From positions 3,784 through 67,783 of the forward strand of contig JBNASH010000033.1 in the NCBI GenBank assembly GCA_049720475.1: a DNA stretch of 64,000 bases. The letters run 5' to 3'. Positions 48,558 to 64,000 of this stretch are shown here, in pieces. Below the pieces are notes generated by a model. That model had not been told where the DNA came from, did no database searches, and saw nothing but the letters and a program-made list of their open reading frames with translations. Both the position numbers and the translations under genes were made by a program. The first letter of the stretch is position 1. Each line of letters starts with the position of its first letter. Source of the DNA: Minisyncoccia bacterium (GTDB lineage: Bacteria; Patescibacteriota; Minisyncoccia; UBA6257; JAAZHW01).

Positions 48558-48623
48558 AATTTTTATTTCCAAACTATTTTTTGTGTTTTTATCTTATCAC
48601 AAAAAATTCTTTTCGTCCACTTT

Positions 48624-48656
48624 AAAAAACAAAAAGGGACTCAAATGAGTCCCTTT
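48624..48656 (-). terminator. Intrinsic terminator of cassette B
   Basis: Minus strand AAAGGGACTC-ATTT-GAGTCCCTTT followed by TTGTTTTTT. Confidence 0.75.
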
Positions 48657-48663
48657 ATAAAAA

Positions 48664-49077
48664 TTACCTTCTTTCCACATACAATCGCCCATCCGACCCT
48701 TGTCGGATGGTGAAAGTATAAGAATATCTGGAATACGAGGAATAAACCCAGAGGGCATCGCTATAAGCGAAGCCCTTTTTATCAATAATCTGAAGTGCTA
48801 CTTGAACGCCATAATAAGATCCATTCCATAATCCTCCAACCCATTTTCCGTAGGATTCCACCACCCCTTTCTCTTCCCCATCAATTAAAACATAAAAATA
48901 ATAAGGAGTGGCGTTGATTACAGTAATACGAGTCGTCTGGATGGGAAGATTGGTATCAACCGCCATCGTTATCCCCAGCGGGGTACAGCTGGAAAACAAC
49001 AGCAGAGCCGCCAACAACCCTAGCAATATCAAAACAATAAAAAATCTCCTTGCGAATTCTTCAATTAATTCTTTCAT
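48664..49077 (-). CDS. Putative lipoprotein (137 aa), cassette B gene 2
   Basis: ATG at 49077 is preceded by TTTAAAAGGAGGAAAAAA. Signal peptide with lipobox LLLFSSC. The mature part is Tyr/Gly-rich and beta-like. Confidence 0.6.
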   Translation of the reverse strand: MKELIEEFARRFFIVLILLGLLAALLLFSSCTPLGITMAVDTNLPIQTTRITVINATPYYFYVLIDGEEKGVVESYGKWVGGLWNGSYYGVQVALQIIDKKGFAYSDALWVYSSYSRYSYTFTIRQGSDGRLYVERR

Positions 49078-51461: not shown

Positions 51462-52463
51462 ATGAATAAAAAAAGAAATGAAAAAGTTTTTCCCCTATTG
51501 GAACCCATTCATACTATTCAACCAGATACTCTGACTGGAATCGTTTTTGGAGATGACCCTGAGATAGATGCCAGCGATTTTCCTTTAGTTTTCATCGATG
51601 CTGATGCCACTATTATGCCTATTACGCTTTTTAAGGGGTATGGAGAAATTGGTAGTGATGCTTTTGTTTCCAATTGTTTTTTATCCAAAGCAACCATAAA
51701 AGATGGAGTTAAAATTATTGATAGTAGAATTTTTACGGCGGTAATTGAAGAGGGATCAGTGGTAATCGACTCCACCATCGAAGGTTCAAAGTTTGGACCG
51801 GGCTGTTATGTTAACGGGTCTATAATTATGGAAAGCGTTTTCGGCAAAGAAGTGGTTGTTTGCGGAAATTCGCATATTAATTGCTCAAGGATTTATGATG
51901 AGGTTGTATTGGGACCACAAGTTGTTGTAGACAATGCTAAAATTGAAAATTTTTCTTATTTAGAAACCGGAGTAAAAATTATAGGACACAAGGGAAAAGA
52001 GCAAGCAATAGTAATTATTAAATCAAAGGTTTATATTGGGGCTGGTGCTTGGATTATTGGGCCGGCACTGATTGATCATAATTGTTACATTGATAACAAT
52101 GTTATACTTGATCCAGGAAAAAATTCTATTGGTATTTTTATTCCGCCATTTTCTTGGGTTCGAAAAAGCAATAATGCAGAAGGATATGAAATTTTAGAAA
52201 AGAGGGCATGCTATTTACTCGATGGGTTGTGGTATGTATCAAAAGCAGAACCGATAAAAATCAAAGAGTTGGTGGATGTAAAAAGAAAAATAAGATTATT
52301 AGAAGAAGAAGTTGCGAAAAAAAGAATAGATATCAAGGAAATATTGCAAGAACCAAATCATTTAACTCAAAATCAACCACCAGTTAGTACTCTCCTTGAA
52401 AAAAATGGATTGGAAAAATTTAGAAATTTCCTTCAATCAATCATAGAAACCCTGGTCAATTGA
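51462..52463 (+). CDS. Left-handed beta-helix (hexapeptide-repeat) protein with a C-terminal coiled-coil tail
   Basis: About 10 imperfect [LIV]-x-x-x-x-x repeats (VKIIDSRIFTAVIEEGSVVIDSTIEGSKFG...VYIGAGAWIIGPALIDHNCYIDNNVIL). ATG preceded by TTTTAGGAGGTAAAAA. Confidence 0.6.
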   Translation: MNKKRNEKVFPLLEPIHTIQPDTLTGIVFGDDPEIDASDFPLVFIDADATIMPITLFKGYGEIGSDAFVSNCFLSKATIKDGVKIIDSRIFTAVIEEGSVVIDSTIEGSKFGPGCYVNGSIIMESVFGKEVVVCGNSHINCSRIYDEVVLGPQVVVDNAKIENFSYLETGVKIIGHKGKEQAIVIIKSKVYIGAGAWIIGPALIDHNCYIDNNVILDPGKNSIGIFIPPFSWVRKSNNAEGYEILEKRACYLLDGLWYVSKAEPIKIKELVDVKRKIRLLEEEVAKKRIDIKEILQEPNHLTQNQPPVSTLLEKNGLEKFRNFLQSIIETLVN

Positions 52464-52473
52464 CCAGGGTTTT
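52450..52473 (+). terminator. Terminator formed by a 20-nt perfect palindrome that contains the stop codon
   Basis: CCCTGGTCAATTGACCAGGG followed by TTTT. The TGA of 51462..52463 is at the centre. Confidence 0.7.
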
Positions 52474-52508
52474 GACTTATTAATGGAAAATTTATAAAAT
52501 TAAAAAGT

Positions 52509-53771
52509 ATGAAAACAAATATTTTTGATGAATTAGAATGGCGCGGTCTGATTAATCAGACAACCGATGCCAATCAATTAAAAAAACGGCTAGAAAAACC
52601 GATTGTGTTATATTGTGGTTTTGATGCCACTGCTGATAGTTTGCACGTTGGCCATCTTCTGCCTTTAATAACTTTAAAACGCTTTGCTCAATTTAATCAT
52701 ACGGCTATTGCTGTTTTAGGTACTGGCACGAGTTTAATTGGCGATCCCAGCGGAAAAAAATCAGAAAGAAAATTACAAGCAGAAGAATTAATTGATGAAT
52801 GGGCAAAAAAATTAGAAAAACAATTCTTATGGTTATTAAATGAAGAGATAGAAAACAAAAAAGCGCTTGTTTTAAAAAATAAAGATTGGTTGAAAAAATT
52901 AACTATGCTTGAATTTATCCGGGATATTGGCAAGCATTTTGGCATTGGTTATATGCTGGCAAAAGAATCAATCAAAAACCGATTAGAAGTAGGTATATCT
53001 TTTACCGAATTTAGCTACATGCTTTTACAGGCCTATGATTATCTCTGGCTTTTTAGAAATTATAACTGTGAACTTCAAATTGGTGGCAGCGATCAATGGG
53101 GCAACATCACAGCAGGCATTGATTTAATTAAAAAATTGGAAAATAAAGAAGTTTTTGGTTTAACTTTGCCCTTGCTTCTTAAAGCAGATGGAACAAAATT
53201 TGGTAAAACCGAAGGAGGGGCAATCTGGCTCGATGCGCAAAAAACTTCTCCTTATCAATTCTACCAATTTCTTATTAATACTGATGATCGTGATGTGATT
53301 AATCTTTTAAAACTTTTGACATTCTTAGCCAAAGAAGAAATCGCCGAATTAGAAAATGAGGTAAAAAATCGTCCGGAACAAAGAAAAGCGCAAAAACGTT
53401 TGGCCGAAGAATTAACAAAAATGATTCATGGTGAAAAAGCTTTAGAACGCGCTCAAAAAATATCTGAAGCTTTGTTTTACAATAATTTAAAAAATCTTTC
53501 GGCTGAAGAATTAAAAGAAGGATTAAACGATGTTCCTTCTGCAATAATTAAAAGCAAAAAAGAATTAAATATTGTTGATTTTCTAATAGAAACGGGAGTT
53601 TGCCCATCCAAAAGACAAGCACGTGAAGATATAAACAATAAGGCCATTTCTTTAAATGGCGAGATTGTGAAGGATATTAATTTAATTCTTACACCCCGAA
53701 AAGCTTTGGTTGAAAATATCTTTGTTGTTCGCCGCGGCAAGAAAAATTATTATCTAATTTATTGGCAATAA
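52509..53771 (+). CDS. tyrS: Tyrosyl-tRNA synthetase
   Basis: YCGFDATADSLHVGHLLP (HIGH), GGSDQWGNI, KFGKTEGG (KMSKS), and a C-terminal S4 domain. TTGACT-17-TAAAAT ends 8 nt before the ATG. Confidence 0.95.
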   Translation: MKTNIFDELEWRGLINQTTDANQLKKRLEKPIVLYCGFDATADSLHVGHLLPLITLKRFAQFNHTAIAVLGTGTSLIGDPSGKKSERKLQAEELIDEWAKKLEKQFLWLLNEEIENKKALVLKNKDWLKKLTMLEFIRDIGKHFGIGYMLAKESIKNRLEVGISFTEFSYMLLQAYDYLWLFRNYNCELQIGGSDQWGNITAGIDLIKKLENKEVFGLTLPLLLKADGTKFGKTEGGAIWLDAQKTSPYQFYQFLINTDDRDVINLLKLLTFLAKEEIAELENEVKNRPEQRKAQKRLAEELTKMIHGEKALERAQKISEALFYNNLKNLSAEELKEGLNDVPSAIIKSKKELNIVDFLIETGVCPSKRQAREDINNKAISLNGEIVKDINLILTPRKALVENIFVVRRGKKNYYLIYWQ

Positions 53772-57537: not shown

Positions 57538-60051
57538 TTAGAAAAGTTTATCCCATTGTTCGTTTTCAACTAAATTAATAAATTCCTGAACATCAGTTGC
57601 ATAACGCGAATCAATTTTTAAAACTTGTTTCGCATATTCGATAGCCTTTTCTTTATTATGTAACTGAGCGTAAGCAGCAGCTAATTTAATAATTATTTGG
57701 AGGCGATTTTTTTGATATTGATTAGCTTTTTCTAAATAGGCAATAACTTTATTGATATGTTCTGGATCTTTAGGTGGATTGCTAATTTCTACAAAAATAG
57801 CCAAATCAATTAACCCTTTGACTTTATTTAACAGAAGGCCTTTTTGGAAAGCCGACAATTTTTTATCTTGAAGCATTGCTTCTGTTTTTTCAATTTCTTG
57901 ATCCACTAAATTAATTAACTTTCCTTGTTGCTGAAAATAAGAAACTTGCGGCATAACATTCATAATGAAATCAGAGGTATTTTCCAAAGAAAACTCATAG
58001 CCATTATCAAAAGCAGTGTTCATATATTTGAAAATTTCCTCCTCGCTTTTTTGATCTTGAATAGCCAAAACTGCCTTCAACCACCAAGCGGGTGCATATT
58101 TAGGAGTTTTCTCTAGCATTTCTGATAATTCCTGTTGTGTTTTTTCTTTTGTTGGCTGACTCAAAACATATTGCAAAATCAAATCGCTTCTTTTCGGATA
58201 ATTTTTCTTCAAAAAACCAAAATATTCATCCATTTCATTTAGGTATAACTGTCTTTCTGTTTCTGATAAATTAGGAAGTTTTGGCATTTGCGAGGCAATA
58301 TAGCTCAAATAAACATAAAAATCTACCATTGGCTCTCTTTTATAACCCGATAGTAATTGATCTTTAATCTTTTCATAATCTTTAATTACTTGATTCGTGT
58401 CAATTTTAATCTGACCAGAGTTGGCATAGGATAAATAAGAAAAGAAGTAATCGGCCCAAGGCTTTTTTATTTCGGTATTAATGAAAGTGTTCAAATTGAC
58501 CGCCTTCTCAAAAATTACAAATCTCCCTTCTAAATCCTGGGGGTTAACCCGATTTGCTTCAAAAACTAATTGGGCGGCCTTATAAGGTTTGTAATCAACA
58601 TGATAAAAGATAAAGGCGGCCACCAATAAAAACGCTCCTATTACTAATACATCCAAAACATCGAGCGAGTTTTTGGAAATAAATTTTTTTGACTCATTTT
58701 TATCATCAATGATATTTTTTCGAATTTTTATATTAGTAGTTGATAAATTGATAAATGCTAAAAAGAAATAGAAAAAGATTGAGTTAGCTGGCGTATCAAA
58801 AACAAAAAAGTTATGAACATTATAGGCTATAAACAAAGAAAAAATGATGATCCAACTAATTTTATCTTTTAATGTTTCGGATGATTTAACTTTTTTATAA
58901 ATCAAATACCCGACCACAAACAACAAAAATAAATAAGCTAGAAAACCAACTATTCCATTCATCACTAAGACATCAAAAAATTTATTATGCGCTCTATCAA
59001 AACGTTCATGACTTAAGGCATAATCATTGGCATCATAATGACTATCAAAAACAGCATAATACATATCTTGGCCATAACCAAAAATAGGTCTTTCTTTCCA
59101 CCAATTAAAACTGCGCTGCCAATTTAAAATACGGGCGCGCGTCGAAGCATCGGACAAAGAAATACTGGCCAAACGACCGATAAAAGGAATTTTTTCGCTA
59201 ATAACACTTTTTTGAATTTTGGGTTGAAAAACAAAAAACAAAACACCCAAAATAATAATCGCGACGGCAACAATAGCACTAATTTTTTTGTATTTTTTAT
59301 CAGGAATAGTAAAAATACTCAAAATTAACCCAACAAACAATCCCAAACCCAAACCTAAAATAGAACCGCGCGTCTGAGCCCACCAAAAAACGAAAAACGA
59401 AACAATGCCCATTATTAATACTAAATTTTTTTGCTGTTTAAACTCAGATTGCTGAATAAAATTAAGATAATACCAAACGATTAAAAACAAATGCACGAGC
59501 AAAAAGCCGGCAAAGAATGTTGGATTGCCAAAAACACCACCGGGCCGGGACAAATTTTCACCTCCCACTACCGGCACAATTTTTAAAATTTCCAAAATAG
59601 GAAAAATAGCGCCAAAAAAACTAATACAAATCGAAGTAAAAATTAATTTGCGGATCGCTTCTTTATCTTCAAAAAAAATCGAAGAAATGGCTAAAAAGAA
59701 AACATAAAAATGAAGCAAAGAAATAAAACCCTCCATTCGCTCAGCATTACCCCAAAAACTACGATAAGGAACAAGGCTAAAAATACAACTAATTAAAATG
59801 GCTAGATAAAAAATTGAGATGGCAATCGTTAAGAGATTAAAATGCGGCTTATATTTTTGAAAATTAATCACCATTAAAATTACCCAGACAAACAAAAGCA
59901 AAAGGACAAAAAACTGAAAAGGAAACATTTTGCCTAAAATAAATGGCCTTAAAATATTAGGCAAAAACATTAATGCGGAAAATAAAGCCGCGCCCACCAA
60001 GAAAAAAGCAACTTTTTTTAAATTTTTCTCCAGAGAAATTAATTGGTTCAT
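57538..60051 (-). CDS. O-antigen-ligase-like (Wzy_C) polytopic membrane protein with a C-terminal TPR-like domain
   Basis: About 12 TM segments with the WAQTRGSILGLGLG loop, then a ~350-aa helical-repeat region (AIEYAKQVLKIDSRYA). Confidence 0.6.
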   Translation of the reverse strand: MNQLISLEKNLKKVAFFLVGAALFSALMFLPNILRPFILGKMFPFQFFVLLLLFVWVILMVINFQKYKPHFNLLTIAISIFYLAILISCIFSLVPYRSFWGNAERMEGFISLLHFYVFFLAISSIFFEDKEAIRKLIFTSICISFFGAIFPILEILKIVPVVGGENLSRPGGVFGNPTFFAGFLLVHLFLIVWYYLNFIQQSEFKQQKNLVLIMGIVSFFVFWWAQTRGSILGLGLGLFVGLILSIFTIPDKKYKKISAIVAVAIIILGVLFFVFQPKIQKSVISEKIPFIGRLASISLSDASTRARILNWQRSFNWWKERPIFGYGQDMYYAVFDSHYDANDYALSHERFDRAHNKFFDVLVMNGIVGFLAYLFLLFVVGYLIYKKVKSSETLKDKISWIIIFSLFIAYNVHNFFVFDTPANSIFFYFFLAFINLSTTNIKIRKNIIDDKNESKKFISKNSLDVLDVLVIGAFLLVAAFIFYHVDYKPYKAAQLVFEANRVNPQDLEGRFVIFEKAVNLNTFINTEIKKPWADYFFSYLSYANSGQIKIDTNQVIKDYEKIKDQLLSGYKREPMVDFYVYLSYIASQMPKLPNLSETERQLYLNEMDEYFGFLKKNYPKRSDLILQYVLSQPTKEKTQQELSEMLEKTPKYAPAWWLKAVLAIQDQKSEEEIFKYMNTAFDNGYEFSLENTSDFIMNVMPQVSYFQQQGKLINLVDQEIEKTEAMLQDKKLSAFQKGLLLNKVKGLIDLAIFVEISNPPKDPEHINKVIAYLEKANQYQKNRLQIIIKLAAAYAQLHNKEKAIEYAKQVLKIDSRYATDVQEFINLVENEQWDKLF

Positions 60052-61036: not shown

Positions 61037-62710
61037 TTAATAACCAAACCATTGACGATTGGCAATAGCCCGCGTTAAAGGACCAAAATAACCGGTGGCT
61101 GGCAGACCATTTTTCTGCTGGAATTTTTGAATGGCTGCCTTGGTTAGATCCAAAAAATTACCAGTGATTAATCTTTCGCTATAAAGATCGGGTTCTTTTT
61201 CAGAAAGCATCTTTTGCAAACACTTTACTTCATTATCATTTCTTAAACCATAATACAAGTCTCTTTGGAAAAATGAGCAAGAAAGATTTGTTTGATTCAT
61301 TGCGTTCAATTGAGCAATAAGCGTTGATAGCTGGGCTTTTAATTGAGCAATCCGTTGAGTGAGCTGCTCTATTAAAGCAGAATTATTGGAAGCGCTGCTA
61401 GAAATTTGAGCATCATACTTGAATAAAACGCCGCCGGAAGAGCTATCGGTAATTATTGGTAAAAGATAAAGAGTATTGGTATCAACGCCGAAATCATTAA
61501 TCGAGATTGTCCCTTTTTTATTCTCACTACTAACCGTTTCAATCTTTTTGTTGTTACTTTTATCAGTGGTGATATAAACTAAAATAAATTGGGTGTCTTG
61601 AGGAAATTCATAATAAATTTTTAAATCACCTCGGCCGCCACTAATTTTAATCCAGTTGCCAGCATATAAATTTAAATAAGTGCTAGCAGTTAAAGAAACC
61701 ACGCCATATTCCGGCAAATAGGTAGTATAGGGATAAATATGAAAGTTTTTTAAATTAGCATTATCAAAACAATAAAGTTTGCCCAACGAACAATCATTAA
61801 AAAGGAGGGTAATCAACCAATTTTTGAAAATAGTATTAAAATCTTCCGAATAACCATTTTTTGCTAAAGCATAATTGATGGAAGCAATACCAGTTAAATT
61901 AGAACGCAAAGAGTCAACTAAAATTTTAATGCCATACTTCTCAACAATGTATTCTGCTAAAAGATGGACCGCGGCATAATCGCTGTTTGTACCTCTAAAT
62001 TCTAACAAAGAAAAGCTTGGGTTTTGACGTAAATCATTAAGATGTTTTTCTAAAAAACTGCCGCTTAAATTAGTGTTATAACCCAAAAAGGTGGAGAGAT
62101 AATCAGAACGCGCTTCGGCTAACCAGCGCTCATCGTCAGAATTAACAAAAATCCCCTTTTGATTAAACGAAATAAGATGCAATACTTCATGAGAAAGATA
62201 ATAGCCAAGTTGATTAATCGACGCGTCCCAAAAAATACTCGTGCTTAAATAAACCATCTCATGCTGATTGGAAAAATTGCCAGAGGCGGCTGGCAAAGAA
62301 TCAACAAAGCGAGCATAACCAACATAATTTTCTTTCAAAGGATGAATTAAAACATAAATGTGGTAATCATTGTCATAGCCGGGAAGCGCTTCAGAGCCAA
62401 AAGTAGCAACAATTCGTGGATAATCGTACTGCTCAAAATAAGTAGCTAAGGTAGCAAATTTGGCGCTGATGGTGTTTTGATTATTGAAAGAAAGGCTTTG
62501 CCACCAATTAGTATCAACGAAAAAATTAAGTTTATTGGTTTGATAAACAAGGGTGGCATTAAGTTGATTGCGCGAATAATAATCATAATCGCTTTCAACA
62601 TAAAAAACGCTCTGAGAATTAATTGATTGCGCAAAAACAGCTGGCGAGAGAAAAACAAAAAGTGCCGCGATAATAAAGATAATTTTCCAATTAAATATCT
62701 TTTTTGGCAT
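61037..62710 (-). CDS. Secreted protein with an HExxH motif and a C-terminal peptidoglycan-binding domain (track ORF extends to 62746)
   Basis: Signal peptide MPKKIFNWKIIFIIAALFVFLSPAVFA, SHEVLHLISF, and C-terminal QKFQQKNGLPATGYFGPLT. TTGAAA-17-TATAAT ends 7 nt before the ATG at 62710. Confidence 0.65.
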   Translation of the reverse strand: MPKKIFNWKIIFIIAALFVFLSPAVFAQSINSQSVFYVESDYDYYSRNQLNATLVYQTNKLNFFVDTNWWQSLSFNNQNTISAKFATLATYFEQYDYPRIVATFGSEALPGYDNDYHIYVLIHPLKENYVGYARFVDSLPAASGNFSNQHEMVYLSTSIFWDASINQLGYYLSHEVLHLISFNQKGIFVNSDDERWLAEARSDYLSTFLGYNTNLSGSFLEKHLNDLRQNPSFSLLEFRGTNSDYAAVHLLAEYIVEKYGIKILVDSLRSNLTGIASINYALAKNGYSEDFNTIFKNWLITLLFNDCSLGKLYCFDNANLKNFHIYPYTTYLPEYGVVSLTASTYLNLYAGNWIKISGGRGDLKIYYEFPQDTQFILVYITTDKSNNKKIETVSSENKKGTISINDFGVDTNTLYLLPIITDSSSGGVLFKYDAQISSSASNNSALIEQLTQRIAQLKAQLSTLIAQLNAMNQTNLSCSFFQRDLYYGLRNDNEVKCLQKMLSEKEPDLYSERLITGNFLDLTKAAIQKFQQKNGLPATGYFGPLTRAIANRQWFGY

Positions 62711-62775
62711 TTTTTTGATTATAAAATAAAAAAGATGAGGTTTCAATAATGAAAGGAAAATGAAAGGAAAAAGAA

Positions 62776-62806
62776 AAGCGGCTGCGTTGTCCCAACGCAG
62801 CCGCTT
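62776..62806. terminator. 13-bp bidirectional terminator at the left edge of the GC-rich island
   Basis: AAGCGGCTGCGTT-GTCCC-AACGCAGCCGCTT, with A-run/T-run flanks, 5 nt after the stop of 62811..63605. Confidence 0.8.
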
Positions 62807-62810
62807 GTTT

Positions 62811-63605
62811 TTAATTTTCTTCTTGGAAGTCCCTCAGGGACAGGCCCCGAGGGTTTTTTTCTACCTCATCCGCTGCCCGAAGGGGCAATTCCTTGCCCCT
62901 TCTCGCCTCAACCACCCTTCTTTTTTCTTTTATTTTTTTATTTTTAGAAGGGGAAGGGGAGGCAGGGGAGGCAGGCTCCGGTGGTTGTGGCCGAATTAGT
63001 TGCGGTGGACGGGTTGGGATTGGGACTTTTTTAAGCCCCGCTTCCCATTTGGGGTTGGGAAGTCTCCGATCGGACTCAAAGAGTTCGACCGAGACTTTCA
63101 GGATTTCCTCGTCAACCTGACCGACGAGGAAATCCCGCAGGGATTCCTTATCCCGCACATAGTGCGGGATATCAATCATTACTCTCTCTCTTTCTAAGAG
63201 AGAGTAATGATTTCCCTGACGGGCTACCCCTAGGTAGTCCGCCACCAGTTTCCGGCCATGGAACCGTACAACGGTCCCATTCCGGAAAAGAAGTAACCAC
63301 TTCCCCACTTTATTGTTAAAGTGGGGAGTGATAAGTTTGTTCTCCCCAACCACTACAGCCCAGCCCTTGGGACCGGGCACAGAAAGGGAAATCTGAAACC
63401 ACTGGGGCTGCCCCAGTTGGGGCAAAAACACCCAAGGTTTCACAATTCCCCGCTCTACCACCACGCACGGCACTTTCAGCCGTGCTTTTAAAGGATCAAA
63501 GTGGACGCCCTGAAGGGCGCCACTTTTAATCCTCTCCAGAATGTCCTGCGGTTTGGGAATGCGTTCCCAAACCGCCCAGATTTTCAAAAAATTACTCCTG
63601 ATCAT
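62811..63605 (-). CDS. Hypothetical protein (264 aa) of the GC-rich island: beta-rich N-domain, Pro-rich linker, basic tail
   Basis: ATG preceded by TTAAAAATTTAATAGGAGGTTTTAA. Plausible protein composition. The ORF is overlaid by many perfect hairpins (see findings). Confidence 0.55.
   Translation of the reverse strand: MIRSNFLKIWAVWERIPKPQDILERIKSGALQGVHFDPLKARLKVPCVVVERGIVKPWVFLPQLGQPQWFQISLSVPGPKGWAVVVGENKLITPHFNNKVGKWLLLFRNGTVVRFHGRKLVADYLGVARQGNHYSLLERERVMIDIPHYVRDKESLRDFLVGQVDEEILKVSVELFESDRRLPNPKWEAGLKKVPIPTRPPQLIRPQPPEPASPASPSPSKNKKIKEKRRVVEARRGKELPLRAADEVEKNPRGLSLRDFQEEN
63101..63212. repeat. Three consecutive perfect inverted repeats (13, 10 and 16 bp stems) inside the ORF
   Basis: GGATTTCCTCGTC-N9-GACGAGGAAATCC (63101..63135); TATCCCGCAC-ATA-GTGCGGGATA (63149..63171); AATCATTACTCTCTCT-N7-AGAGAGAGTAATGATT (63174..63212). 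Confidence 0.9.
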
Positions 63606-63628
63606 TTAAAACCTCCTATTAAATTTTT

Positions 63629-63672
63629 AACAAGGTGTGGCCCGGGCCGATAGCCCTAAGGTTCACCTTGTT
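63629..63672 (-). promoter_or_regulatory. 5-prime-UTR stem-loop immediately upstream of the SD leader
   Basis: AACAAGGTG...CACCTTGTT 9-bp stem enclosing GGCCCGGGCC and GGGC-N5-GCCC sub-helices. A TATTGACTTTTT promoter-like box lies at 63701..63712. Confidence 0.5.
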
Positions 63673-63726
63673 GCTGTTTTAAGAATATCATAAAAATACA
63701 AAAAGTCAATAGGGTTGAAGAATAAA

Positions 63727-63746
63727 AGCGGGCTTAAAAGCCCGCT
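63727..63746 (-). terminator. Intrinsic terminator with the stop codon in the loop
   Basis: Minus strand AGCGGGC-TTTTAA-GCCCGCT followed by TTTATTC. The TAA of 63734..63931 lies in the loop. Confidence 0.7.
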
Positions 63747-63931
63747 TTTTTTCTTTCGCCCTTTTCCTTCTTCCTGTCCTCTAGGACAGAAAGAAGGACC
63801 ATTAAAAAGACTGAGAACAGCATCAGTCCCCCAGTCAACCCCGTCCATCCAACCTTTTCCTGTCCCCACGGCCGAAAGGCGTAGAGAACCAGATTCTCAA
63901 TTAATAACAAAAACAATAAAAAATATTTCAT
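63734..63931 (-). CDS. Small 2-TM membrane protein (65 aa) of the GC-rich island
   Basis: ATG at 63931 preceded by GAAAGGAGGTTTTTTG. MKYFLLFLLLIENLVLYAF...GLMLFSVFLMVLLSVL...KKEKGERKKAGF. A TATTGACTTTTT box lies at 63989..64000. Confidence 0.55.
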   Translation of the reverse strand: MKYFLLFLLLIENLVLYAFRPWGQEKVGWTGLTGGLMLFSVFLMVLLSVLEDRKKEKGERKKAGF

Positions 63932-64000
63932 CAAAAAACCTCCTTTCTTTTTTTTAAAAAGCTTCTTATATTCCAGCATAAAAATTTAAAAAAGTCAATA

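Follow-up and report, generated by a model that had tools for sequence, protein, structure and literature searches.

Near the end of a 64-kb window (the whole stretch of DNA that was analysed) of a Patescibacteria (Minisyncoccia) genome with a GC content of about 32%, the minus strand carries a gene for a 264-amino-acid (aa) protein whose messenger RNA is predicted to fold far more strongly than its protein sequence and codon set account for. Secondary structure has probably been selected in the sense mRNA of this real gene, and the reading favoured here, with a probability of about 0.5, is that the whole mRNA has been selected to fold into near-saturating local hairpins with an mRNA-stabilising role. 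The initial annotation, made from the sequence alone, had suggested that a second layer of information overlies a real protein, and this is borne out by homologues that keep the helices with compensatory changes; among the options it listed, a highly structured mRNA fits best.

Fold strength was compared with that of synonymous shuffles, in which codons are permuted and the protein and codon set stay unchanged. For the first 600 nt of the coding sequence (CDS) the predicted minimum free energy (MFE) was -321.5 kcal/mol against -217 +/- 7 kcal/mol in the shuffles (z = -14.1), three other alleles gave z = -12.8 to -15.3, and homologues from distant clades gave z = -3.2 to -3.7. A 931-nt stretch that spans the transcription unit (62760-63690) folds at -460.8 kcal/mol, z = -23.6 against dinucleotide shuffles, and in a 921-nt version of the transcript 72% of bases are predicted to be paired. 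Per nucleotide, the predicted MFE is -0.51 kcal/mol for the gene versus -0.42 kcal/mol for the 16S rRNA of the same organism. The average unpaired probability (AUP) is 0.25 for the codons of the N-terminal domain (N-domain), 0.23-0.27 across eight alleles and 0.43-0.48 in neighbouring genes; for mRNAs designed as superfolders the average is 0.24-0.28, and for standard designs 0.34-0.40 (PMC7457604). With this AUP and its z of -14 against synonymous shuffles, the gene is superfolder-like by functional analogy, not by family. A sliding z-score scan showed sharp edges at the transcription unit, and in 200-nt windows over the other 56 kb the mean z was -0.2, with only rRNA, tRNA and terminator clusters standing out. 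The extreme fold propensity is therefore gene-specific and goes beyond codon or amino-acid composition. The earlier expectations that the stems exceed chance and that host genes have nothing comparable both held, as codon-preserving shuffles do not reproduce the structure and neighbouring genes lie at z ~0.

The inverted repeats that had been read by hand were all recovered where they had been placed, with small corrections to stem lengths (Table 1). Perfect stems of at least 9 bp number 31 in the whole window; 7 of the 31 lie inside the 0.8-kb open reading frame (ORF), and almost all the others are intergenic terminators or rRNA flanks. The stems are unlike one another in sequence, and blastn of the locus against the window returned self-palindromes only, with no other copy of a family of the repetitive extragenic palindromic (REP), miniature inverted-repeat transposable element (MITE) or Rickettsia palindromic element (RPE) type. 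The internal stems have no U-tract on the sense strand, where only 62776-62806 has the make-up of an intrinsic terminator, and the T7 that follows the stem at 62831-62853 belongs to the antisense strand. A competing 6-bp hairpin, proposed as part of a switch, is present at 63131-63145, but it faces a helix of 13-17 bp and the alternative is not conserved, leaving the switch role unsupported.

The consensus fold was computed with RNAalifold on a protein-guided codon alignment of eight clade-A alleles, that of the window being labelled WIN; the analysis was limited to clade A because a consensus fold over three clades shares only few helices. It contains 192 pairs in 17 helices at -246 kcal/mol. 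Standard pairs fill 93.5% of 1531 cells versus 38-49% when partners are slid by 1-3 columns, and 37 pairs have changed on both sides, versus 8-15 in the slid controls and 20.3 +/- 2.8 in column shuffles (0 of 500 reached 37, a control that by the tool's own caveat is not a probability). Covariation above background, as in a conserved structured RNA, was found in both the CDS and the leader described below. Hairpins occupy the same codons in different alleles, with compensatory changes: helix 13 (63174..63212) has 5 doubly changed pairs together with G.U intermediates across the eight alleles, and helix 6 passes from GCACGGC-N7-GCCGTGC (A-R-L-K-V-P-C) to GCACGGG..CCCGTGC (A-R-V-K-I-P-C), where Leu to Val is matched by Val to Ile, and in clade B to GCAAGGG..CCCTTGC via synonymous Arg and Pro changes. 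Likewise, helix 14 passes from TATCCCGCAC..GTGCGGGATA to TGTCCCGCAC..GTGCGGGACA, with an Ile to Val change compensated by a synonymous GAT to GAC, and reads GTTCCTTATC..GATAAGGAAC in clade B. Such allele comparisons show the predicted stems imposing amino-acid covariation in places.

In general, allele differences concentrate in unpaired columns, or else the pair is kept via G.U or a double change. Among the 175 differences between WIN and the allele of locus L006, 76 fall in unpaired columns, 23 are pair-keeping doubles and 22 are singles kept by G.U, against 15 singles and 8 doubles by which a pair is lost. The helices keep register across alleles with a synonymous divergence (dS) of up to 1.4. 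Extreme structure characterises clade A and builds on an older, weaker tendency. No conserved loop motifs fit for repeated binding sites were seen in the consensus fold. Synonymous-site conservation proved uninformative as a test, dS being saturated between clades, and a loop inversion between WIN and the L001 allele, considered as a template-switch signature, proved to be an ordinary Gly/Asp polymorphism common to other alleles.

As to the molecule that folds, the evidence suggests, without being decisive, a structure of the sense RNA rather than DNA cruciforms. The 1x1 mismatches inside Watson-Crick-seeded stems are G.T in 32 cases versus A.C in 11, and where pairs are defined without G.U the deviations are G.U 106 times versus A.C 53 times; G.U intermediates are also the commonest pair difference between close alleles. 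The consensus fold of the antisense strand reaches -179 kcal/mol, 67 kcal/mol short of the sense strand. Furthermore, many helices are bulged, some are nested within longer-range helices, and the structured zone coincides with transcription units.

The ORF is a genuine, lineage-restricted protein-coding gene with a monocistronic mRNA, as is evident from its promoter, Shine-Dalgarno (SD) sequence, ATG and terminator, 19 homologues in conserved synteny, mostly synonymous substitutions and an AlphaFold2 model. The initial annotation had already taken it for a real protein on its SD, ATG and terminator, and all three are in place, with the ATG at 63605 and GGAGG seven bases 5' of it. The predicted sigma-70 promoter is strong and near consensus, and the block CTATTGACTTTTT..TTTTTATGATATTCT that represents it is found upstream of every homologue; on the plus strand of the locus a consensus scan gave one weak promoter-like site only. 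GC is 0.47-0.52 across ~62.75-63.9 kb and 0.51-0.57 in the gene, the level of rRNA and tRNAs in this genome, and the GC content of third codon positions (GC3) is raised to 0.55-0.69. The view of this GC-rich island as a foreign insertion did not hold up, as the gene lies at the same place in all relatives, though alleles have been exchanged between strains.

Relatives of the protein are few: among 5.8 billion proteins 11 were found, a number that a profile raised to 19, and an exhaustive profile search of 1.84 billion cluster representatives returned 15 clusters only, all from metagenome-assembled genomes (MAGs) of Patescibacteria type and metagenomes. The ratio of nonsynonymous to synonymous divergence (dN/dS) is 0.2-0.3, with substitutions mainly synonymous. 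In the alignment, a conserved N-domain of ~195 aa is followed by a Pro/Gln-rich linker that varies in length and by a basic-then-acidic, Lys/Arg-rich tail. AlphaFold2 modelled the N-domain (residues 1-195, 18 sequences) with a predicted local distance difference test (pLDDT) score of 88.5; for the full-length protein the score was 49, which is unusable. No known fold matches the predicted N-domain structure, and no family was found in Pfam, PHROG, NCBIfam, PADLOC or PDB sequence and profile searches. The product is soluble and has neither a signal peptide nor repeats. Purifying selection on the protein and its confident predicted fold speak against the suggestion that the locus makes a large noncoding RNA (ncRNA) instead of a protein, and these searches gave no Rep-like or other known domain that would go with the suggested origin of rolling-circle-replicon type. 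In one homologue (P0018) the annotated start is a GTG inside the conserved leader (L018 611-675); its true start is the ATG at L018:675 after GGAGG, and its first 21 residues are probably not translated.

The predicted 5' end of the transcript bears a leader of 45 nt, CAAGGUG-AA-CCU-UA-GGGCU-AUC-GGCCC-GGG-CCA-CACCUUG, which starts just a few bases past the -10 hexamer, occurs in conserved form in all three clades (A, B and C), and folds into an outer stem of 8-9 bp, an internal loop, and stems of 3 bp and 5 bp with an AUC loop. Over 16 loci its 17 pairs are paired in 100% of 261 cells, 6 pairs carry changes in both partners, and no variation is seen at two U.G pairs or at the unpaired bases (AACCUUA, GGGCCA); the covariation score is 0.356 versus 0.153. 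A covariance model finds exactly one copy per locus, always 5' of the 264-aa gene, and none elsewhere in the window or the loci; the idea of a regulon was dropped, as the model yields no second copy anywhere. The motif is also absent from IMG/VR. Only rRNA and tRNAs in the window pass the Rfam gathering threshold, and at E-values up to 10 the best matches within 62600-64000 reach at most 29 bits against thresholds of 37-430, mostly on terminators. The predicted leader is thus a new conserved 5' motif without a match in Rfam.

Downstream of the leader, the unpaired probability predicted for positions -26..+6 is 0.41-0.64 versus 0.23-0.27 in the CDS. The SD (63612-63616) is predicted to pair with GGACUUCC in the last codons (62822-62829) in 3 of the 8 alleles (WIN, L001 and L002), with P = 0.94-0.99 at five paired bases (AGGAGG; leading A 0.01-0.58), and in four other alleles with CACCUU, the 3' arm of the leader. 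Pairing of the SD with the last codons or the leader could gate translation; its partner is not conserved.

Table 1. Positions of the hairpins, gene signals and neighbouring gene in the window
Feature	Position	Strand	Basis or remark
16-bp perfect hairpin, the longest; codons N-H-Y-S-L-L-E-R-E-R-V-M-I	63174..63212	-	helix 13 in all 8 alleles
13-bp perfect hairpin, helix 15	63101..63135	-	18 bp in allele L001
12-bp perfect hairpin near CDS 5' end	63548..63575	-	
11-bp perfect hairpin, helix 10	63302..63327	-	9 bp in the initial annotation
10-bp perfect hairpin in C-terminal tail codons	62879..62902	-	kept in L001
10-bp perfect hairpin, helix 14	63149..63171	-	position conserved in all clades; sequence differs in clade B
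7-bp perfect stem	63041-63062	-	
7-8-bp hairpin, helix 6; codons A-R-L/V-K-V/I-P-C	63465..63485	-	conserved in all clades
7-8-bp perfect stem	63401-63417	-	
Imperfect or nested stems	63249-63288 and 63492-63533	-	confirmed present
Most structured mRNA part, N-domain codons, 17 conserved helices (15 local)	63021..63605	-	RNAalifold, 8 alleles
264-aa CDS: conserved N-domain (residues 1-195), variable Pro/Gln-rich linker, basic-then-acidic tail	62811..63605	-	ORF
Predicted promoter TTGACT-16 nt-TATTCT, TG before -10 hexamer	63682..63709	-	consensus scan
Conserved 5' leader RNA motif, predicted transcript 5' end	63629..63672	-	alignment of 16 loci, three clades
A+U-rich ribosome entry region including SD GGAGG (63612-63616)	63606..63628	-	read from sequence
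Intrinsic terminator, 14-bp stem, U-tracts on both strands	62776..62806	-	stem identical in all clade-A loci
Upstream 65-aa protein gene, two predicted membrane helices, motif YAFRPWGQEK	63734..63931	-	ORF

The gene lies in a conserved order of PG_binding_1, (99-aa, SLT_2), small membrane-protein gene, 264-aa gene, PG_binding_1, 273-aa gene and Wzy_C, and 7 loci share its chromosomal neighbours (the PG_binding_1 genes, the 273-aa gene and Wzy_C); nearby there is no gene for a Rep, relaxase, transposase or nuclease. Between WIN and L001 the dS of the flanking PG_binding_1 gene is 0.009, while the 264-aa gene has a dS of 0.23 and a nonsynonymous divergence (dN) of 0.07, and WIN and L006 have flanks 97-100% identical over >3 kb with alleles 57% identical in protein. 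On either side of the CDS, loci L021 and L004 show 100% identity; within it, 100% blocks alternate with blocks of 70-88% and the linker is at 42-64%. Over its first 250 nt, the CDS of L021 is 98-100% identical to the L006 allele. Compared with these four loci, the CDS of the window is 48-96% identical, recombination blocks are confined to the CDS, and the gene tree disagrees with the flank tree. As read from the alignments, this is intragenic mosaic recombination among old alleles and not hypermutation; local hypermutation was rejected because the allele dS of 0.23-1.38 lies within the flank range of distant genomes and the mosaic blocks match other alleles at 98-100%. A diversity-generating retroelement target was rejected as well, there being no reverse-transcriptase domain among the called genes of the loci and no second copy of any part of the gene in the window; the variation is mosaic and not adenine-specific, and no silent donor copies for gene conversion occur in the window. 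The adjacent variable segments (the N-terminus of the 557-aa PG_binding_1 gene, and Wzy_C) are neither GC-rich nor structured, so recombination alone does not create hairpins. Within the O-antigen-ligase-like Wzy_C gene (57538-60051), a patch at 57860-58960 is only 63-87% identical between WIN and L006, and the DNA between this patch and the 264-aa gene is ~100% identical.

DNA beyond the end of the window was taken from L009, a 99%-identical locus. The upstream 65-aa gene has its own 16-bp hairpin (63765-63798) and terminator (63724-63749), a promoter (~63960-64000, cut by the window end) of nearly the same sequence as that of the 264-aa gene, and a moderately structured mRNA (z -2.6 to -3.9 against synonymous shuffles, which also apply to the z-scores of whole genes that follow in this paragraph). 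It adjoins the 264-aa gene in clades A, B and C and is missing in L006, and its product matches Phage_holin_2 only weakly (E = 0.0012, short of the Pfam cut-off). Further upstream, outside the window, relatives carry a 620-aa PG_binding_1 gene for a beta-rich, surface-type protein (L002 1345-3207, L004 465-2327; C-terminus in L009 32-661) with GC of 0.40-0.46 and z of -2.6 to -6.5, whose C-terminal part is 75-83% identical between near-identical strains. Between the small gene and the 264-aa gene, some loci have an additional orphan ORF of 197 aa (L004 4281-4874, and the first 350 nt of L021), with z = -15.4, one 200-nt window at z = -27, the same TATTGACTTTTT-type promoter as the 264-aa gene and leader hairpins of its own; it has no homologue in 5.8 billion proteins and could be a gene that arose de novo, or else an RNA element in which the ORF is incidental. 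The SLT_2, 99-aa, 557-aa, 273-aa and Wzy_C genes lie at z ~0 (-2.3 to +1.5).

Elsewhere in the window, the intergenic stretch 48576-48710 (z -11.5) holds three hairpins between two minus-strand genes that look like stacked terminators, and a short intergenic stretch at 52401-52600 has a fold z of -7.6. Thermophily was also considered as a driver of the structure. The IVYWREL fraction over 41 window ORFs of at least 200 aa is 0.431, for which a crude linear relation would put the growth optimum near 69 C; set against this hint of a warm habitat, the GC of the 16S rRNA is 0.54, which is not thermophile-like, and that of the tRNAs is 0.55-0.58.

Under the favoured reading, selection would have shaped near-saturating, mostly local hairpins from the leader hairpin to the terminator, with synonymous codons, and in several places amino acids too, picked to build both arms of stems; the raised GC3 would follow from this choice of codons. 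Only the A+U-rich ribosome entry site would have been left comparatively open. Single-strand-specific endoribonucleases and in-line hydrolysis act poorly on double-stranded RNA, and a transcript that begins with a stem-loop, leaves ~25% of its bases unpaired and ends in a strong terminator would be expected to be unusually long-lived. A translating ribosome would have to melt only one or two short-range hairpins at once, and with refolding behind it the message would stay translatable. Short-range pairing would also survive frequent intragenic recombination, which long-range pairing would not.

Several points weigh against this reading. The stabilising role draws on general knowledge of RNase specificity and on engineered mRNAs, and would carry over to this gene by analogy. 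Distant clades keep the protein and the leader at z ~-3 to -4, so the extreme structure is not essential to protein function, and simple optimisation for high expression is disfavoured because GC-ending codons are atypical for the genome. On the side of the RNA, the strict count of conserved G.U versus conserved A.C is 5 versus 4, too few sites, the G.U excess could come from a sense-strand C-to-T (transcription-associated) bias, and many stems are perfect Watson-Crick palindromes, equally able to form in single-stranded DNA. Finally, the SD is predicted to be partly sequestered, with an unpaired probability of 0.11-0.45 and a partner that varies by allele, which fits translational control as well as it fits stability.

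That the RNA structure regulates or gates translation, whether by SD sequestration, as a thermosensor, through a helicase or leader-bound protein, or by Rho-proofing of a poorly translated transcript, is unlikely. The predicted pairings of the SD would suit it, and the leader sequence is conserved far beyond the need of a generic 5' stabiliser, which suggests a specific ligand. However, without a conserved SD partner no single switch is supported, one or two helices would suffice where 17 span the whole CDS, and the total folding energy is far too large for a thermometer to melt. Less likely still is a dual function in which the transcript also serves as a structural or scaffold RNA, for instance as a component of a ribonucleoprotein or as a molecule that the basic-tailed protein it encodes binds or packages, although the GC and fold density of the transcript equal or exceed those of the rRNA of the same genome, the protein combines a Lys/Arg-rich tail with a fold of no known relative, and the 197-aa orphan of L004 is as structured with no homologue, so that the RNA may matter more there. 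Against it, the clades have the protein in common but share helix positions and sequences only in part, and neither repeated loop motifs nor viral relatives were found.

The probability is small that the DNA itself is the target, its palindromes forming hairpins or cruciforms that promote breakage, recombination and allele exchange at a contingency locus, or acting as an origin-like element. Many stems are indeed perfect, their loops measuring 3-9 nt, single sequences fold very stably in the antisense strand too (z ~-15), and the CDS is a recombination mosaic between 100%-identical flanks; however, cruciforms would not extrude from helices that have bulges, from G.U pairs retained in several alleles or from nested helices of longer range, and the structure follows the transcript boundaries, includes a typical RNA leader motif and is missing from the neighbouring recombining segments. 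The replication, transfer or packaging origin raised by the initial annotation, as in a rolling-circle, plasmid or phage origin within its own rep gene, found no support: no Rep/HUH or other initiator domain was seen in the protein, chromosomal synteny is conserved and nothing points to a mobile replicon or prophage, and no viral contig carries the gene or leader; a viral origin was rejected likewise, as neither protein nor leader has a relative in IMG/VR. Just as improbable is a functionless by-product of template-switch (quasipalindrome) mutations and GC-biased gene conversion at a recombination hot spot. Template switching can yield perfect stems and multi-base compensatory changes in a single event (PMC8794818), the locus recombines often and its stems are unusually perfect. 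Yet the effect is confined to particular genes, adjacent and equally recombining DNA having a GC of 0.32-0.37 and z ~0, the helices stay in register to a dS of 1.4 with changes that avoid or compensate paired positions, and a neutral process would not hold the ribosome entry open or match the transcription unit; template switching is more plausible as a source of variation, in the form of perfect stems, for selection. An assembly or amplification artefact by fold-back chimeras is practically refuted, since the same gene and helices, with the reading frame intact in all recovered copies, occur in NCBI MAGs and in JGI, ENA and Logan assemblies of many independent samples, the architecture having been assembled independently in >15 metagenomes, including a 99%-identical copy.

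A wider extension of the mRNA-stabilising reading is put forward tentatively, as a possibility that is itself rather doubtful: a small set of cassette genes (the 264-aa gene, its 65-aa partner, the 197-aa orphan and the PG-binding surface protein) may have evolved natural superfolder mRNAs in one Patescibacteria lineage, with proteins co-evolving with hairpins, messages armoured against RNA attack or decay (endoribonuclease toxins, RNA-guided nucleases, dormancy), the CDS shuffled as a mosaic cassette and the leader as a new gene-specific class of cis-regulatory RNA. If the structure does lengthen mRNA life, the gene offers a natural test bed for how ribosomes face saturated structure, how RNA and protein constraints are reconciled in one sequence, and why an obligate episymbiont would need to armour the message of a gene that recombines and is hypervariable. 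For genome scans, it is a warning that GC-rich, ncRNA-like islands in AT-rich genomes can be protein genes.

Most structure inside the coding regions of bacteria is weak and local, and it is difficult to tell apart from the constraints of codons and amino acids; the literature yielded no report of a bacterial chromosomal gene structured over its whole CDS to such a degree. Functional structure in coding RNA is a known phenomenon; what is new here is the leader motif and a protein fold without a detectable relative. The genomes of single-stranded RNA (ssRNA) phages (MS2, Q-beta; Leviviricetes) are coding RNA packed with conserved, ORF-overlapping hairpins that constrain synonymous sites, and in this density of hairpins they resemble the 264-aa gene, which unlike them belongs to the chromosomal DNA, in conserved synteny and with a promoter and terminator of its own, is absent from viral contigs and has no repeated loop motif. 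Large ncRNAs such as OLE, GOLLD, ROOL and HEARO likewise form GC-rich, strongly folding islands with covariation in AT-rich genomes, but the 264-aa locus encodes a conserved, foldable protein and has no Rfam match. REP elements and bacterial interspersed mosaic elements (BIMEs), MITEs and RPEs share with it hairpin-forming DNA inside a reading frame that contributes codons, whereas here the stems all differ, have no other copy in the window and are part of a conserved protein rather than insertions.

Stable mRNAs of abundant envelope proteins (with the ompA leader or surface-layer (S-layer) leaders) and hok-type mRNAs have in common with this transcript a 5'-terminal stem-loop at the transcript start and a strong terminator, but their known structure lies in untranslated regions or one fold-back, whereas here it takes in the whole 795-nt CDS. 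The likeness to hok extends to the predicted pairing of the SD with the 3' end in some alleles and to an adjoining small membrane-protein gene; however, that fold-back is predicted in WIN, L001 and L002 only, other alleles pairing the SD differently, and the product is no type I toxin peptide but a soluble protein of 264 aa, only the upstream gene encoding a membrane protein of 65 aa. S-layer cassettes, as hypervariable surface or contingency loci, also show mosaic alleles between otherwise identical strains with the variation confined to one gene. In the nearest report from the candidate phyla radiation (CPR), on a hypervariable repeat gene of a Gracilibacterium, RNA structure was only suggested as a target of selection (PMC6851277), whereas the 264-aa gene has neither repeats nor a signal peptide and its structure is backed by statistics and covariation.

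In fold density the gene is like engineered superfolder mRNAs, in which synonymous codons maximise CDS pairing (PMC7457604; Mauger et al., bioRxiv 10.1101/549022). Their AUP averages 0.24-0.28 compared with 0.25 here, the start region is more open in both, and resistance to hydrolysis and nucleases would be expected here likewise. A natural gene thus attains, by prediction, the fold density of designed, stabilised mRNAs and exceeds that of its own 16S rRNA, and if the structure lengthens mRNA life, evolution reached this solution before engineers did. The 264-aa gene nevertheless differs from the designs in that it is natural and evolved, is kept by compensatory substitutions and amino-acid covariation, and uses short local hairpins where the designs use long helices.

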